NCBI GenBank assembly: GCA_963782055.1
Contig: CAWAIF010000003.1
Span: 1,952,001 to 2,016,000 of the forward strand
Length of the DNA stretch: 64,000 nucleotides
From: an uncultured delta proteobacterium
GTDB taxonomy: Bacteria > Myxococcota_A > Polyangia > Polyangiales > Polyangiaceae
Reading direction: 5' to 3'
The translations under genes were made by a program, and so were the position numbers. The notes below the pieces were generated by a model that saw only the letters and a list, made by a program, of their open reading frames with translations, did no database searches and was not told where the DNA came from. Positions 40,830 to 63,893 of this stretch are shown here, one piece after another (the first letter of the stretch is position 1; the number at the start of each line of letters is the position of its first letter).

Positions 40830-40869
40830 GCGACGCGTCGGTGCGCGCCTCGTGTAGGATGCGCCCATG

Positions 40870-42906
40870 GTGCGCCGTGAAGAAGCAGGTCGTCCGTCGG
40901 GCATGCCCGACGAACGACCTGCCTCAAGCTGCGCTTCTCCAGCGGGTGAGAGTCCCGCACCGGTAAGCGTCGGAGCGCCGGGTAGCAGGCCCCAGCCGAG
41001 CGGGAGAGATCCCGTCGGCCGAGCGGGGCGTCGAAAGGGTCCACGGACCGAGCGAGCACGCGGGCCGCAACATGAAGTGAAGCTTGCAGCCTCGTCAGAT
41101 CTACAAACCGGGAGCCGAGCCGATCATGTCGCGGCGAAGGCAATATCGGCGGCGCCAGATCCGAAACGCGCCGTCGGTCCCGGCGGGGTAGGGAGCGCAG
41201 CACGCGTGCAAGGAGGAGTGCGGAACTCGGGAGGCCCGTCTGCGTCGCCCTCGTCGGGGCAAGGCGCGTCGTATAAGCCAGAGGCGAAGTCGGCCGCTGC
41301 GCAGCGGGAGTCCGAGGGGGTCACTGTACCGAAGAGCGAGGCGCGAGCTTCGCGAACGAACGCCGTGAAGAACAACGCGGCAGGAGGGAAAGACCCCTGC
41401 AGTGGTCGTGTCGGCGGAGCAGGTAAGCGCGAGGGCATGGCCGGCGAGACCGGTCCCAACCACCCCCATCGGCGACAGCCCATGGACAAAGTGCGACAAC
41501 TGCAACGCCGGCTGTGTGCCGCGGCCAAGCGGCATCCGGAGCGCCGATTCCACGCGCTGTATGACCGCATCGCGAGGCGTGACGTCCTCGCGGAAGCGTG
41601 GAAGCGGGTAAGGAGGAACAAGGGAGCCGCGGGCGTCGATGCCCAGACGATCGCGGCGCTCGAGGTGTACGGAGTGGATCGACTCCTCGGAGAGATCCAT
41701 GACGTGCTCCGTGCAGGCAGGTACCGGCCGGCAGCGGTGCTGCGCCGGTACATCCCGAAGGCCGATGGGAAGAAGCGGCCGCTTGGGATCCCGACGGTCC
41801 GAGACCGGGTGGTGCAGATGGCGACGAAGCTCGTGCTGGAGCCGATCTTCGAGGCGAGCTTTCGCTCGTGCTCGTACGGCTTCCGTATCGGGCGGAGCGC
41901 GACGGACGCCCTGGAGACGCTGAGGAAGCTCGGCGCGAAGGGGTACAACCACGTGCTCGACGCCGACATCCGTGACTACTTCGGGAGCATCGATCACGAC
42001 AAGCTGATGAAGCTCGTCGAGCGGCGCATCTCGGACCGGAGGGTGCTCAAGCTGCTGCGGCAGTGGCTCACGGCGGGGGTGATGGACGAAGGCACGGTGA
42101 CCAACCCCTCCAGCGGCACGCCGCAGGGCGGGGTGATCTCGCCGCTGCTCTCGAACATCTACCTCGCCGTGCTCGACGACGTGTGGACGAAGCGGTGCGC
42201 GCATCTTGGCGAGCTGGTTCGTTATGCGGACGACTTCGTCGTGATGTGCAGGACGAAGCGTGACGTCGACGAGGCCGAGCTTCGCGTGAAGCACGTGATG
42301 ACGCGACTCGGGCTCGAGCTGCACCCGGACAAGACGAGGAAGCTGGACCTCTCCTGGGGTAAGAAGGGGTTCGACTTCCTCGGCTGCCACCTGCGGAAAC
42401 GCTTGAGCGGGTCCATCTGGGAGAGGTCGCGCAAACGCGTGTACTTCCTCCAGCGCTGGCCATCGGCTCGCGCGATGAAGCGGATCCGGCAGCGCGTGAG
42501 GGACCTCACCCCGCGATCACGCTGCCACGCGGACCTGCGCGACGTCGTCGCGCAGCTCAACCCCGTGCTGCGTGGCTGGGGCGAGTACTTTCGCACCGGG
42601 AACGCCGACGTGAAGTTCAACCGACTCGACGAGTACGTGTACGAACGGCTTCGAGCGCTGCGCCTGAAACGGGCCGGCTCGAAGCTCAAGGCCGGACAAG
42701 CCGAGCGCTGGACCCGCGACTACTTCGTCGAAGGCTTCGGGCTCCACCGCCTGCGCGGGACCATCCGCTACCCGGAGGCCGCGTAATGCCGCGTCACGAG
42801 AGACCACCGGTAAGCCGTGTGCGGGAAATCCGCACGCACGGTTTGAGAGGGGGTCTTGACTCCAACCGCCGCCGTAGGGCGGCCAAGGTGTAAGGATCTA
42901 CCAATG
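40870..42906 (+). mobile_element. Group II intron copy 1 (RT-encoding, no endonuclease domain), inserted directly after a host ATG
   Basis: 5' GTGCG; GGTGAGAGTCC domain I motif; domain V AAGCCGTGTGCGGGAAATCCGCACGCACGGTTT at 42812-42844 (AGC triad); domain VI with bulged A42900. Ends defined by the repeat with copy 2. Confidence 0.95.
41482..42786 (+). CDS. ltrA: Group II intron reverse transcriptase/maturase (copy 1)
   Basis: NKGAAGVD, YIPK.DGKKRPLGIPTVRDRVVQ, SYGFR, DADIRDYF, GTPQGGVISPLLSNIYL, RYADD, FDFLG, LNPVLRGWGEYF; no C-terminal HNH. Alternative in-frame starts at 41437 and 40867. Confidence 0.97.
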   Translation: MDKVRQLQRRLCAAAKRHPERRFHALYDRIARRDVLAEAWKRVRRNKGAAGVDAQTIAALEVYGVDRLLGEIHDVLRAGRYRPAAVLRRYIPKADGKKRPLGIPTVRDRVVQMATKLVLEPIFEASFRSCSYGFRIGRSATDALETLRKLGAKGYNHVLDADIRDYFGSIDHDKLMKLVERRISDRRVLKLLRQWLTAGVMDEGTVTNPSSGTPQGGVISPLLSNIYLAVLDDVWTKRCAHLGELVRYADDFVVMCRTKRDVDEAELRVKHVMTRLGLELHPDKTRKLDLSWGKKGFDFLGCHLRKRLSGSIWERSRKRVYFLQRWPSARAMKRIRQRVRDLTPRSRCHADLRDVVAQLNPVLRGWGEYFRTGNADVKFNRLDEYVYERLRALRLKRAGSKLKAGQAERWTRDYFVEGFGLHRLRGTIRYPEAA

Positions 42907-43560
42907 TCGCACTGGGAGCACCGACCCGAGCCGAAGTGGCGTGAGTTCAAGTTCAACCAGCCGTACGCGAAGGGGCTGAAGCGCCTGCGCGAGGAGGTCC
43001 TCGCCAAGACCGACTTCGACCCCGCGACGCTCTGGCAGTGGGGGACGATGCAGGCGATGGCGCTGATCGAGGTGCTCAAGTCCTGCGAGGCGACCTTCGG
43101 CGCGGAGGGGCAGAAGCTGGTGCAGGACGCGCTCCATCGCGTCGGTCAGGACGTCGGCCGGCAGATCCTGGAGGGTGTGGAGATCCCAGACGACCTGACC
43201 GAGACCGAGTTCATCTCCTTCTACGCCACGGTCATCAACCGCATCCCGTACGCCTCGCTGGAGGCGCCGCGCATCGACGCCGAGGGCAAGGCGACCTTCG
43301 ACATCCTCTGGTGCCCGCACCAGGACCACTACGGCGCCTTCGACTGCCGCGTGCAGCGCTACTTCGTGCAGGGGATGATCGACGCCGCGCGCGAGCACGC
43401 CGCGGGCTTCGGCTTCGAGGTGCGCTTTGACACGACGATCCCGTCGGGGTCGCCGACGTGCCACTTCACGATGTGGAAGCCGACGGAGGAGGAGCGCGCC
43501 GCGTGGGAGGGCACGACGAAGCTGATCGAGGACAAGGCGCTCGCCCGCGCGAAGCGGTAG
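42904..43560 (+). CDS. Hypothetical protein, host of intron copy 1 (V4R/ATC-hydrolase-like Cys pattern); pre-insertion ATG at 40867
   Basis: MSHWEHRP...; WCPH...DC......GM...F.TTIPSG...CHF; ATG supplied by the intron 3' end. Confidence 0.8.
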   Translation: MSHWEHRPEPKWREFKFNQPYAKGLKRLREEVLAKTDFDPATLWQWGTMQAMALIEVLKSCEATFGAEGQKLVQDALHRVGQDVGRQILEGVEIPDDLTETEFISFYATVINRIPYASLEAPRIDAEGKATFDILWCPHQDHYGAFDCRVQRYFVQGMIDAAREHAAGFGFEVRFDTTIPSGSPTCHFTMWKPTEEERAAWEGTTKLIEDKALARAKR

Positions 43561-50591: not shown

Positions 50592-50607
50592 TGGCACGTA
50601 GCCTGCT
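50592..50607 (+). promoter_or_regulatory. Sigma54 (-24/-12) promoter candidate directly upstream of intron copy 2 and its host ATG
   Basis: TGGCACG-TAGC-CTGCT with GG at 50593-50594 and GC at 50605-50606; predicted +1 near 50618, ATG at 50621. Confidence 0.65.
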
Positions 50608-50623
50608 AACGGTCGTGCCCATG

Positions 50624-52660
50624 GTGCGCCGTGAAGAAGCAGGTCGTCCGTCGGGCATGCCCGACGAACGACCTGCCTCAAGCTGCGCTTCTCCAGCGGG
50701 TGAGAGTCCCGCACCGGTAAGCGTCGGAGCGCCGGGTAGCAGGCCCCAGCCGAGCGGGAGAGATCCCGTCGGCCGAGCGGGGCGTCGAAAGGGTCCACGG
50801 ACCGAGCGAGCACGCGGGCCGCAACATGAAGTGAAGCTTGCAGCCTCGTCAGATCTACAAACCGGGAGCCGAGCCGATCATGTCGCGGCGAAGGCAATAT
50901 CGGCGGCGCCAGATCCGAAACGCGCCGTCGGTCCCGGCGGGGTAGGGAGCGCAGCACGCGTGCAAGGAGGAGTGCGGAACTCGGGAGGCCCGTCTGCGTC
51001 GCCCTCGTCGGGGCAAGGCGCGTCGTATAAGCCAGAGGCGAAGTCGGCCGCTGCGCAGCGGGAGTCCGAGGGGGTCACTGTACCGAAGAGCGAGGCGCGA
51101 GCTTCGCGAACGAACGCCGTGAAGAACAACGCGGCAGGAGGGAAAGACCCCTGCAGTGGTCGTGTCGGCGGAGCAGGTAAGCGCGAGGGCATGGCCGGCG
51201 AGACCGGTCCCAACCACCCCCATCGGCGACAGCCCATGGACAAAGTGCGACAACTGCAACGCCGGCTGTGTGCCGCGGCCAAGCGGCATCCGGAGCGCCG
51301 ATTCCACGCGCTGTATGACCGCATCGCGAGGCGTGACGTCCTCGCGGAAGCGTGGAAGCGGGTAAGGAGGAACAAGGGAGCCGCGGGCGTCGATGCCCAG
51401 ACGATCGCGGCGCTCGAGGTGTACGGAGTGGATCGACTCCTCGGAGAGATCCATGACGTGCTCCGTGCAGGCAGGTACCGGCCGGCAGCGGTGCTGCGCC
51501 GGTACATCCCGAAGGCCGATGGGAAGAAGCGGCCGCTTGGGATCCCGACGGTCCGAGACCGGGTGGTGCAGATGGCGACGAAGCTCGTGCTGGAGCCGAT
51601 CTTCGAGGCGAGCTTTCGCTCGTGCTCGTACGGCTTCCGTATCGGGCGGAGCGCGACGGACGCCCTGGAGACGCTGAGGAAGCTCGGCGCGAAGGGGTAC
51701 AACCACGTGCTCGACGCCGACATCCGTGACTACTTCGGGAGCATCGATCACGACAAGCTGATGAAGCTCGTCGAGCGGCGCATCTCGGACCGGAGGGTGC
51801 TCAAGCTGCTGCGGCAGTGGCTCACGGCGGGGGTGATGGACGAAGGCACGGTGACCAACCCCTCCAGCGGCACGCCGCAGGGCGGGGTGATCTCGCCGCT
51901 GCTCTCGAACATCTACCTCGCCGTGCTCGACGACGTGTGGACGAAGCGGTGCGCGCATCTTGGCGAGCTGGTTCGTTATGCGGACGACTTCGTCGTGATG
52001 TGCAGGACGAAGCGTGACGTCGACGAGGCCGAGCTTCGCGTGAAGCACGTGATGACGCGACTCGGGCTCGAGCTGCACCCGGACAAGACGAGGAAGCTGG
52101 ACCTCTCCTGGGGTAAGAAGGGGTTCGACTTCCTCGGCTGCCACCTGCGGAAACGCTTGAGCGGGTCCATCTGGGAGAGGTCGCGCAAACGCGTGTACTT
52201 CCTCCAGCGCTGGCCATCGGCTCGCGCGATGAAGCGGATCCGGCAGCGCGTGAGGGACCTCACCCCGCGATCACGCTGCCACGCGGACCTGCGCGACGTC
52301 GTCGCGCAGCTCAACCCCGTGCTGCGTGGCTGGGGCGAGTACTTTCGCACCGGGAACGCCGACGTGAAGTTCAACCGACTCGACGAGTACGTGTACGAAC
52401 GGCTTCGAGCGCTGCGCCTGAAACGGGCCGGCTCGAAGCTCAAGGCCGGACAAGCCGAGCGCTGGACCCGCGACTACTTCGTCGAAGGCTTCGGGCTCCA
52501 CCGCCTGCGCGGGACCATCCGCTACCCGGAGGCCGCGTAATGCCGCGTCACGAGAGACCACCGGTAAGCCGTGTGCGGGAAATCCGCACGCACGGTTTGA
52601 GAGGGGGTCTTGACTCCAACCGCCGCCGTAGGGCGGCCAAGGTGTAAGGATCTACCAATG
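50624..52660 (+). mobile_element. Group II intron copy 2, direct repeat of 40870-42906 (offset 9,754)
   Basis: Same 5' GTGCG, domain V (52566-52598), domain VI and 3' CTACCAATG; ORF-track translations match copy 1. Confidence 0.95.
51236..52540 (+). CDS. ltrA: Group II intron reverse transcriptase/maturase (copy 2)
   Basis: Translation identical to copy 1 (YADD, PQG, maturase X domain). Confidence 0.97.
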   Translation: MDKVRQLQRRLCAAAKRHPERRFHALYDRIARRDVLAEAWKRVRRNKGAAGVDAQTIAALEVYGVDRLLGEIHDVLRAGRYRPAAVLRRYIPKADGKKRPLGIPTVRDRVVQMATKLVLEPIFEASFRSCSYGFRIGRSATDALETLRKLGAKGYNHVLDADIRDYFGSIDHDKLMKLVERRISDRRVLKLLRQWLTAGVMDEGTVTNPSSGTPQGGVISPLLSNIYLAVLDDVWTKRCAHLGELVRYADDFVVMCRTKRDVDEAELRVKHVMTRLGLELHPDKTRKLDLSWGKKGFDFLGCHLRKRLSGSIWERSRKRVYFLQRWPSARAMKRIRQRVRDLTPRSRCHADLRDVVAQLNPVLRGWGEYFRTGNADVKFNRLDEYVYERLRALRLKRAGSKLKAGQAERWTRDYFVEGFGLHRLRGTIRYPEAA

Positions 52661-53068
52661 CGCTCCCTTCTCCTCGCTCTCCTCTCGGCGTCCTCCCTCG
52701 CGCTCGGCGCATGCGGCGGCGTGGCCGTGGACACCTCCTCCGACGCCGGCGCGGGCGCGGACGGCGGTCACGACGCCGCGACCTCCCCCGTCACGTGTCA
52801 GGGCAAGACGTGCGGCGCGGGGGAGGTGTGCGTGGTCACCACCTCCGGCGGCGGCCCGTGCCTCCTGCCTGACGACGCGGGGGTCTGTCCCGACGGCACC
52901 CACACCACCGGCTGCTGCGACAACACGACCACCGGCTACGCGTGCAAGCCGCTCCCCGCCGCATGCAAGGGCAGCCTCGCGTGCCCGTGCGCGGACACGC
53001 TCTGCCAGTGCGGCGGCTGCCAGGTCGCCGACGCGGGCGTGCTCGCGTGCCAGTGCCTGTATCCCTGA
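52658..53068 (+). CDS. Small Cys-rich lipoprotein, host of intron copy 2; pre-insertion ATG at 50621
   Basis: MRSLLLALLSASSLALGAC lipoprotein signal begins exactly at the intron-terminal ATG; many Cys residues. Confidence 0.85.
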   Translation: MRSLLLALLSASSLALGACGGVAVDTSSDAGAGADGGHDAATSPVTCQGKTCGAGEVCVVTTSGGGPCLLPDDAGVCPDGTHTTGCCDNTTTGYACKPLPAACKGSLACPCADTLCQCGGCQVADAGVLACQCLYP

Positions 53069-63820: not shown

Positions 63821-63893
63821 GGGGCCGTAGCTCAGCTGGGAGAGCGCATCCATGGCATGGATGAGGTCAGGGGTTCGATCCCCCTCGGCTCCA
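63821..63893 (+). tRNA. tRNA-Ala (GGC)
   Basis: Acceptor stem GGGGCCG/CGGCTCC with G3:U70; D-arm GCTCAGCTGGGAGAGC; anticodon stem CATCC/GGATG with loop ATGGCAT; T-loop TTCGATC. CCA is not encoded. TAGATT -10-like hexamer at 63792. Confidence 0.97.

Follow-up and report, generated by a model that had tools for sequence, protein, structure and literature searches.

Why should a group II intron lie directly behind the first codon of a protein-coding gene, and how would its reverse transcriptase (RT) be made from there? The question is raised by a 64,000-nt stretch of DNA (the window hereafter; G+C 72%) from an uncultured bacterium of the Polyangiaceae (NCBI GenBank assembly GCA_963782055.1, 7.6 Mb in 3 contigs; contig CAWAIF010000003.1, positions 1,952,001 to 2,016,000), which carries two copies of such an intron. 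Our sequence analysis indicates that the element is probably a recently active, endonuclease-less member of a widespread lineage whose retrohoming targets lie immediately behind the start codon in genes of the leaderless type, marked by a TANNNT hexamer 6-8 nt before the ATG or GTG, and which would borrow the host promoter and the 5' AUG for expression of its RT. A preliminary description of this DNA had recognized the targeting of start codons, which stands; its reading was nevertheless incomplete, having overlooked the -10 box of the targets, the anticodon-like exon-binding site 1 (EBS1) and the open frame leading from the host ATG into the RT.

The element is a group II intron with a GUGYG start, domains I-IV, domain V and domain VI. 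Comparison of the window with itself returned two copies of 2037 nt each that were 100% identical, the identity spanning 40863-42906 and 50617-52660, including the 7-nt flank GCCCATG, and breaking right after the terminal ATG, with the first mismatch at 42907. A two-copy structure with a shared flank of this kind far exceeds chance. As had been described before, both copies follow GCCCATG, share their 3' end and continue in frame into host open reading frames (ORFs), here of 218 and 136 aa. Three Rfam models matched both copies above gathering (RF02003, 77.1 bits; RF02005, 55.8 bits; RF00029, 44.3 bits), the 5' start is GTGCG, and the 3' end reads ...AAGGAUCUACCAAUG / GTAAGGATCTACCAATG. Because TG is repeated at both junctions, boundaries 1-2 nt further left may remain compatible with the sequence alone; the canonical GUGCG start, the register of EBS1 and a branch A 6 nt before the last base favour a junction directly after the start codon. 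The RT protein of 434 aa matched RVT_1 (4.9e-37), GIIM (5.8e-17) and TIGR04416 (409.8 bits), and the domain search, which returned RVT_1 and GIIM only, found no endonuclease domain in it. Its RT5 motif reads YADDFVVM, the closest solved RT chain is that of the GsI-IIC RT and not CL1 T.el4h, and 25 nt separate the end of the ORF (stop TAA 42784-42786) from the start of domain V. The conserved domain I motif (RF02003) starts 71 nt from the intron 5' end, preceded only by a variable hairpin of about 45-60 nt.

Across the genome we found nine insertion sites, comprising seven full-length copies, one interrupted by an insertion sequence (IS) and one rearranged, all about 100% identical. The sites are mutually unrelated, and their 5' flanks end in CATG in eight cases and CGTG in one, matching the CATG flank that had been predicted for further copies. 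Position -4, which corresponds to -1 of the presumed transcription start, is C at 9/9 sites, and +1 is C (8) or T (1). From the terminal ATG, host frames stay open for 515, 284, 218, 199, 141, 136, 93, 85 and 20 codons, several of them opening with signal-peptide or lipoprotein-like sequence. Since the intron-less orthologues of host gene 1 in four other genomes of the family begin with M-[A/P]-H-W-[D/E]-H at an ATG aligned with the flanking ATG (4/4), the intron lies between codons 1 and 2, as previously proposed. Orthologues of two further host genes likewise begin at the matching codon; for the 515-aa host, relatives gave paralogue-level matches only and hence no empty site to compare.

Relatives of the intron were collected by scanning one genome per species, which yielded 577 tblastn-confirmed stretches encoding RT relatives, and the best 80 of these (56-90% identity) were kept. 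They come from Myxococcota, Acidobacteriota, Planctomycetota, Beta- and Gammaproteobacteria, Actinomycetota, Spirochaetota and others, and nearly all of them fit the predicted flank. At the 69 loci with a 5'-end candidate, the junction codon was ATG in 54 and GTG in 7, the remainder being TG cut by a contig end (3), mis-called ends (4) and a single AGG. The latter locus, L071 from a Vicinamibacterales metagenome-assembled genome, has the flank TAGAAT-N6-AGG, yet keeps the terminal ATG and an open frame; its host start codon was possibly lost after insertion. The ATG-ending design was absent from a Streptomyces intron with 50% RT identity (L137), so the trait has a boundary.

The intron's own contribution to target choice appears to be short. 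As judged from alignment and covariation, EBS1 pairs with intron-binding site 1 (IBS1) over 4 bp, and the start codon supplies three of these. The EBS1 loop of 48 aligned introns keeps CAU, the anticodon of initiator tRNA, with CAC in a few. All five CAC loci (L033, L042, L043, L083 and L094) have a GTG flank, compared with 2 of the 51 CAU introns. The loop base that follows CAU or CAC can pair with position -4 in 51 of 54 introns (G-C 37, U-G 9, C-G 4, A-T 1), a value matched by 0 of 10,000 shuffles. A fifth pair is unsupported (27/54 pairable), and no upstream pairing was detected beyond 4 bp, no search having been aimed at EBS2 as such. As 4 bp cannot explain the near-perfect restriction to sites with a -10 box, a further targeting cue is needed. 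If transcripts start at the A of the start codon, position -4 lies outside the RNA, so that its covariation suggests that DNA is what is recognized during retrohoming. A targeting route by reverse splicing into leaderless mRNA is accordingly disfavoured, position -4 being absent from such RNA yet covarying with EBS1.

At seven of the nine local sites, the start codon is preceded at 6-7 nt by a strict TANNNT hexamer (TAGGAT three times, TACCAT twice, TACCGT and TAACGT), the remaining two hexamers being TAACGG and TAGGGC; as background, TANNNT at a spacing of 5-8 precedes just 0.45% of the ATG/GTG triplets in the genome. Among relatives with at least 20 nt of flank, 53 of 59 have the box at a spacing of 5-8 (6 nt in 33, 7 in 12, 8 in 7 and 5 in 1). 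Four of the six misses are mis-called 5' ends: once re-called, L096, L099 and L100 carry TANNNT-N6-7-ATG and L055 reads GACAAT-N6-ATG. The true exceptions, GAAGAT, CAGGAT and GACAAT, all retain the A and the last T. C occupies position -4 in 45/59 relatives, and C at -1 followed by A at +1 is typical of transcription starts. Genome-wide, TANNNT upstream of in-frame ATG/GTG codons near the 5' ends of long ORFs peaks at spacing 6 (5.99 per 1000), then 7, 8 and 9, compared with roughly 1 per 1000 for the remaining spacings and about 0.3-0.75 (0.57) per 1000 for ORF-internal codons. The box is already present on intron-free orthologues (TACGCT-N6-ATG, TACACT-N7-ATG, TAGACT-N6-GTG and GATGAT-N6-ATG), more distant orthologues of the host genes having Shine-Dalgarno (SD)-type leaders instead, and an SD does not fit between box and ATG. 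With its TANNNT-N6-8, a pyrimidine at -1 and no SD, the signature suggests that the target genes are of the leaderless type, and since the spacing is variable and promoter-like, with C at -4, we infer that the shared feature is a transcription start at the start codon rather than a motif at fixed distance.

Two other cues were considered and set aside. A hairpin in the 5' flank, as for IIC introns, was rejected, the 54 flanks folding no better than their shuffles (mean minimum free energy -6.37 vs -5.77). A pairing between the -10 region and the GAUCUAC repeats of the intron, similar to EBS2 and considered by eye, was abandoned, since the central bases of TANNNT are free to vary.

In bacteria, the ORF of an intron normally stays within domain IV. 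Here, a single frame runs from the host ATG through domains I-III (D1-D3) into the RT/maturase, the three frames of copy 1 between junction and RT containing 0, 4 and 6 stops. A usable 5' junction was available for 65 relatives. In 54 of them intron base 1 and the RT share the same phase, and in 53 no stop interrupts this frame before the RT, with the re-called L055 adding one further case, whereas the other two frames hold 1-12 stops each and are open in 0/65. Junction-RT distances in the open relatives range from 567 to 669 nt, every one a multiple of 3 despite alignment indels. The open frame is not a G+C artefact. No protein domain was found in the 190-aa D1-D3 frame, NCBIfam matching only residues 239-601, that is, the RT part. 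The ATG at 41482, where the recognizable RT region begins, is conserved in just 3 of 48 introns, so the RT must start upstream of it. For group I introns, the relevant passage of PMC3073962 states that self-splicing introns usually carry an early in-frame stop that keeps ribosomes out; the start-codon lineage shows the reverse, with the frame kept open through the ribozyme.

In the mechanism that we propose, RNA polymerase would start at the A of the host ATG, giving a precursor pppAUG-intron-exon 2 whose 5' exon is just pppAUG. Leaderless-initiating ribosomes on this 5' AUG would read through D1-D3 into the RT/maturase, and the intron would need neither a promoter nor a ribosome-binding site (RBS) of its own, both promoter and start codon being borrowed. 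Folding of EBS1 onto the AUG would shut off translation and permit splicing, and exon ligation would give back a leaderless mRNA. The terminal AUG could allow unspliced or half-spliced RNA to yield the host protein as well, for example where the 3-nt exon is lost or splicing fails, and in some sublineages an SD-like strand of domain VI might assist it. The intron would probably take the promoter or transcription start itself as its target cue, sensing it through RNA polymerase/sigma or through the non-template strand of the -10 element in single-stranded form, and would at the same time use the lagging-strand template of replication forks for insertion.

On the last point, all five copies at 1.99-3.17 Mb lie on the + strand and all four at 4.46-6.98 Mb on the - strand, and cumulative GC skew peaks near 3.5 Mb. 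The 839 candidate sites in the genome (TANNNT-N6-7-start with an ORF of 100 codons or more behind it) are evenly split between strands, at 114:112 and 208:216 in the two regions. With the terminus at 3.5 Mb, every copy would fall in the lagging-strand template, which we treat as only a lead. A more far-reaching version, drawn by analogy and held here only tentatively, is that the ribonucleoprotein finds transcription start sites and not sequence. It might be guided by RNA polymerase/sigma at the -10 element (in open complexes, or with the single-stranded non-template strand acting as lagging-strand template), whereupon the initiator-tRNA-like CAU would pair with the start codon; the inserted ribozyme would then be read from its first base by leaderless-initiating ribosomes to make RT, amounting to a Ty3-like, promoter-aimed bacterial retroelement.

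The 3' end of the intron bears on a different account of the same habit. All 74 loci with a located domain V end in a start codon (YTACYN[A/G]TG; ATG 71, GTG 3), which in every relative examined is in frame with the host ORF, as had been expected; this ORF has at least 80 codons at 56 of the 64 loci with enough sequence. Since L042 and L043 combine the EBS1 CAC with a terminal AUG, the property conserved here is a start codon and not pairing with EBS1. The preliminary description had further read the AAGGA upstream of it as a rebuilt RBS, and this part found no support in that form. In a consensus fold of domains V and VI from 36 introns, domain V is canonical and the long domain VI is closed by GGGGGUCUU paired with AAGGAUCUACC, the latter containing the AAGGA. 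The A of CUAC (42900) is bulged and just AAUG, 4 unpaired nt, follows the helix, which places the branch A in the usual geometry of mobile group II introns, a bulged A 7-8 nt from the 3' splice site. The helix covaries, with GGGGGCGUUG/CAACGUCUACC in betaproteobacterial and GGGGAAUGGGG/CCCCUGACUACC in actinobacterial relatives, both non-SD, and one pair shows 9 double changes; AAGGA is therefore a structural strand rather than a rebuilt RBS. An SD-like 4-mer occurs 4-10 nt before the terminal start codon in 45/74 relatives and is absent from 29/74. Split RF00029 alignments had suggested a 3' extension after domain VI as in B.c.I4-type introns, where 53-56 nt separate domain VI from the 3' splice site; the consensus fold puts the whole 3' tail inside the long domain VI, which speaks against an extension and accounts for the split alignments.

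These data leave some room for neutrality as the sole reason for start-codon targeting, with the intron 3' end supplying SD and ATG so that the host protein is made with or without splicing. We regard this as possible, if doubtful. It fits the universal, in-frame terminal ATG/GTG, the AGGA or AAGG lying 7-8 nt upstream in 45/74 relatives, and L071, where AGG stands in place of the host ATG and the terminal ATG is still kept. However, the bases that resemble an SD form a strand of the domain VI helix, where 29/74 relatives have compensatory non-SD bases instead, and neutrality leaves both the -10 box on the targets and the open frame into the RT unexplained.

Several points weigh against expression of the RT from a borrowed leaderless start. 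Counts over the relatives are not independent, given shared ancestry. Two of nine local sites and three relatives show just NANNNT or TANNNN. To our knowledge, a 3-nt 5' exon is without precedent for efficient exon ligation. In the soil libraries that we compared, three RNA-library runs and one DNA run (two of these runs look like a single data set deposited twice), the RNA-library contigs cover the intron interior only (40929-42852), with no junctions, starts or ends. With a noisy GC skew and an assembly of 3 contigs, the replication argument is weak. Furthermore, 12/65 relatives do not have the open frame; several of these are 1-2 nt off open paralogues in the same genome (596 vs 597; 577 vs 576), as decaying copies or assembly errors would be. 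Some sublineages (Solibacter/Bryobacterales, Terriglobia and several Actinomycetota) have a free-standing RT ORF on the same type of site, the ORF opening just 57-144 nt upstream (L078, L082, several Actinomycetota, and L067/L068, placed by their RT ORF with 5' junctions not located). The D1-D3 frame has no codon periodicity, with entropies of 0.68/0.70/0.71 vs 0.61/0.49/1.12 in the RT, suggesting that it is kept open and in phase with no selection on the peptide, which also fits an anti-polarity role. Finally, the near-invariant ATG at 41437, with GAGGG 1 nt upstream, could be an ordinary internal start for the protein encoded by the intron (IEP).

The open-frame observations could also mean that the D1-D3 frame keeps ribosomes on the RNA against Rho-dependent polarity or decay, or brings them in for re-initiation at the terminal AUG, with the RT starting at the internal ATG. 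A frame free of amino-acid-level selection, an internal ATG conserved in 45/48 introns and the existence of sublineages with free-standing RT ORFs all agree with such a role. On the other hand, the frame is also in phase with the RT in 54/65, beyond what avoidance of polarity needs, and GAGGG 1 nt from the internal ATG is poorly spaced for an SD, so we consider this explanation rather unlikely. Neither it nor neutrality is mutually exclusive with the leaderless mechanism proposed above.

TANNNT might instead be a DNA recognition element for the intron protein or RNA and no promoter, the targets not being leaderless, which we judge improbable. Its T, A and T do stand at fixed relative positions on nearly all targets, but their distance to the ATG varies from 5 to 8 nt with the same profile as the genome-wide gene-start signal. 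The motif is also found on intron-free orthologues, C at -1 and A at +1 are arranged as at transcription starts, and there is no room for an SD before the ATG. In its favour, proteins of other intron lineages read a few distal 5'-exon positions, according to the relevant passages of PMC12584367. Membership in the IIB1 (Avi.groEL / EcKTE56.groEL) start/stop-codon clade is highly improbable: of the likeness to Avi.groEL raised in the preliminary description, the habit of insertion at the initiation codon holds, but the intron lacks an endonuclease domain, with 25 nt from the end of the RT ORF to domain V, and also a subdomain Ia of 300-700 nt, the RF02003 match starting 71 nt from the 5' end; its hosts are genes other than housekeeping ones, it does not come from a proteobacterium, and the closest solved RT is of IIC type, not CL1 T.el4h.

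Features of the intron copies and their host genes, in window coordinates
Feature	Position	Strand	Description and basis
TAGGAT, -10-like TANNNT hexamer	40855-40860	+	6 nt upstream of the copy 1 host ATG; predicted leaderless-gene promoter
Host start codon, copy 1	40867-40869	+	ATG = IBS1, C 40866 = fourth pair; predicted transcription start A 40867; orthologue starts, EBS1 covariation
639-codon open frame	40867-42786	+	Host ATG through D1-D3 into RT/maturase; stop TAA 42784-42786
Intron copy 1	40870-42906	+	GUGCG...CUACCAAUG; Rfam, copy identity
EBS1 CAUG	41125-41128	+	9-nt loop AUCAUGUCG of domain I hairpin 41116-41133; CAU pairs with AUG, G with C at -4; RF02005 alignment
Conserved in-frame internal ATG	41437-41439	+	DIVa-like hairpin (GAGGGCAUGGCCGG...CCGGUCC); ATG 45, GTG 2, ATA 1 of 48; possible alternative IEP start
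RT (RVT_1) and maturase (GIIM) region	41482-42786	+	Without DNA-binding/endonuclease domain
Domain V	42812-42845	+	RF00029; helix invariant across 36 sequences
Domain VI	42849-42902	+	GGGGGUCUU pairs with AAGGAUCUACC; distal part variable; bulged branch A 42900; RNAalifold compensatory pairs
AAGGA, SD-like	42892-42896	+	7 nt before ATG 42904-42906; strand of domain VI helix
Intron-terminal AUG	42904-42906	+	In frame with host ORF
Host gene 1 from codon 2	42907-43560	+	218 aa with ATG, MSHWEH...; weak ATC_hydrolase-like match
Host start codon, copy 2	50621-50623	+	Upstream hexamer TAACGG 50607-50612, no strict TANNNT
Intron copy 2	50624-52660	+	Identical to copy 1; every feature at +9754
Host gene 2 from codon 2	52661-53068	+	136-aa predicted lipoprotein, MRSLLLALLSASSLALGAC..., lipobox; no Pfam family

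Some of the other genomic copies have features of their own. At the site at 4455607 on contig C3 (L006), just a 20-codon ORF follows the terminal ATG, and the intron may also insert at promoter-adjacent ATGs without a real gene behind them. The copy at 5377587-5381147 on the same contig (L008 1-1500; L012) is split in domain VI by a 1.5-kb insertion encoding an IS66-family transposase (DDE_Tnp_IS66, 1.5e-34), with intron bases 1997-2006 on both sides, like a 10-bp target duplication. The rearranged copy (L009-L011; 2503251-2504075 and 2517652-2518302 on contig C3) is without bases 773-1337 and has its 3' part inverted 14 kb away, where it adjoins an ORF with weak integrase-core and helix-turn-helix matches and repeated CCCTCAGATTTTCCGGAA ends; this looks like an IS-mediated rearrangement.

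Within the window, the 5'-subterminal hairpin of copy 1 (40886-40925) comes close to a perfect palindrome, its tip being formed by CAUG (40903-40906), the target's own four bases, in what is the most variable intron part among relatives; its minus strand gave a weak, below-threshold match to the Pseudomonas small RNA P37 model. A tRNA gene lies on the + strand at 63821-63893 (RF00005, 61 bits). Contigs from the soil RNA and DNA runs are identical to the intron interior at 40929-42852, so the same intron sequence is present in public soil samples.

Overall, the observation is real and lineage-wide, and its logic is unusual and testable. Group II introns are thought to persist in bacteria behind terminators or inside mobile DNA, keeping ribosomes out of the ribozyme. 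The lineage described here does the opposite, in that it occupies codon 1 of ordinary genes across six phyla or more, reaches near-perfect precision with a 4-bp pairing, and has a ribozyme that doubles as an ORF. If the proposed mechanism is true, it would represent a new targeting principle for bacterial retroelements, based on recognition of promoters or transcription starts, a natural case of leaderless translation feeding a retroelement, and a bacterial parallel to exon-fused mitochondrial intron ORFs. Intron copies would then mark the leaderless promoters of uncultured bacteria at no cost, and targetron designs for gene-neutral insertion could be modelled on them.

Among known systems, class C (IIC) introns insert behind terminator or attC hairpins, are endonuclease-minus and use an IBS1-EBS1 pairing of 3-4 bp. 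The start-codon lineage resembles them in having no endonuclease domain, a very short IBS1-EBS1 with no pairing detected beyond 4 bp, and GsI-IIC as its closest solved RT; because the pairing is so short, specificity must here, as in class C, come from a structural or contextual cue. Unlike in class C, this cue consists of a -10 box and a start codon with no hairpin, and the intron sits inside genes, not behind them. The yeast mitochondrial cox1 introns aI1 and aI2, which are organellar IIA introns with long 5' exons, have ORFs in frame with the upstream exon that are translated from the exon start codon through the ribozyme. The intron ORF described here is likewise in frame with its upstream exon, but this exon is a start codon only, and the host is a bacterium.

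RmInt1 recognizes a specific IS target through long EBS1 and EBS2 pairings, and its ORF is free-standing, in contrast to the 4-bp EBS1 pairing and the RT frame open from the host ATG in the present lineage. As described in an excerpt of PMC8914252, this class D, endonuclease-minus intron of Sinorhizobium meliloti inserts into the lagging-strand template at replication forks; the start-codon lineage is also endonuclease-minus, and the strand bias of its copies points the same way. Ty3, a yeast long terminal repeat (LTR) retrotransposon, integrates at transcription start sites via host factors and not by sequence alone, according to the corresponding passage of PMC7306698. This is again a retroelement at transcription start sites, although by analogy only, as Ty3 is a eukaryotic LTR element with an integrase and a host factor in our case is hypothetical. 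Group g2 of Toro and Martinez-Abarca (M.xa.I1, Sg.ce.I1) differs from our intron, its RT5 motif having FADD for YADD in the portion of PMC3552965 concerned, where the RT analysed here has YADD.

By titles and abstract openings, a literature search combining group II introns with leaderless genes returned nothing on the subject, and the sections of PMC4424553, PMC3753933, PMC3552965, PMC4028801, PMC8919778 and PMC7306698 that were consulted contain no start-codon or promoter targeting. A search on initiation or start codons led only to the IIB1 clade; priority for the lineage described here may lie with Michel et al. 2007 or Simon et al. 2008. In the passages of Gomes et al. 2025 (PMC12584367, citing Michel et al. 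2007) that deal with it, this Avi.groEL/EcKTE56.groEL clade is associated with initiation and termination codons of proteobacterial housekeeping genes and has a IIB1/CL1 RT with an endonuclease domain and a subdomain Ia of 300-700 nt. Judged against those passages, both lineages are tied to translation start signals. The start-codon lineage, in contrast, has no endonuclease domain and a short variable 5' hairpin, uses what appear to be leaderless-type starts of assorted genes in many phyla, and combines a 3' end that is itself a start codon with a frame open from the host ATG.

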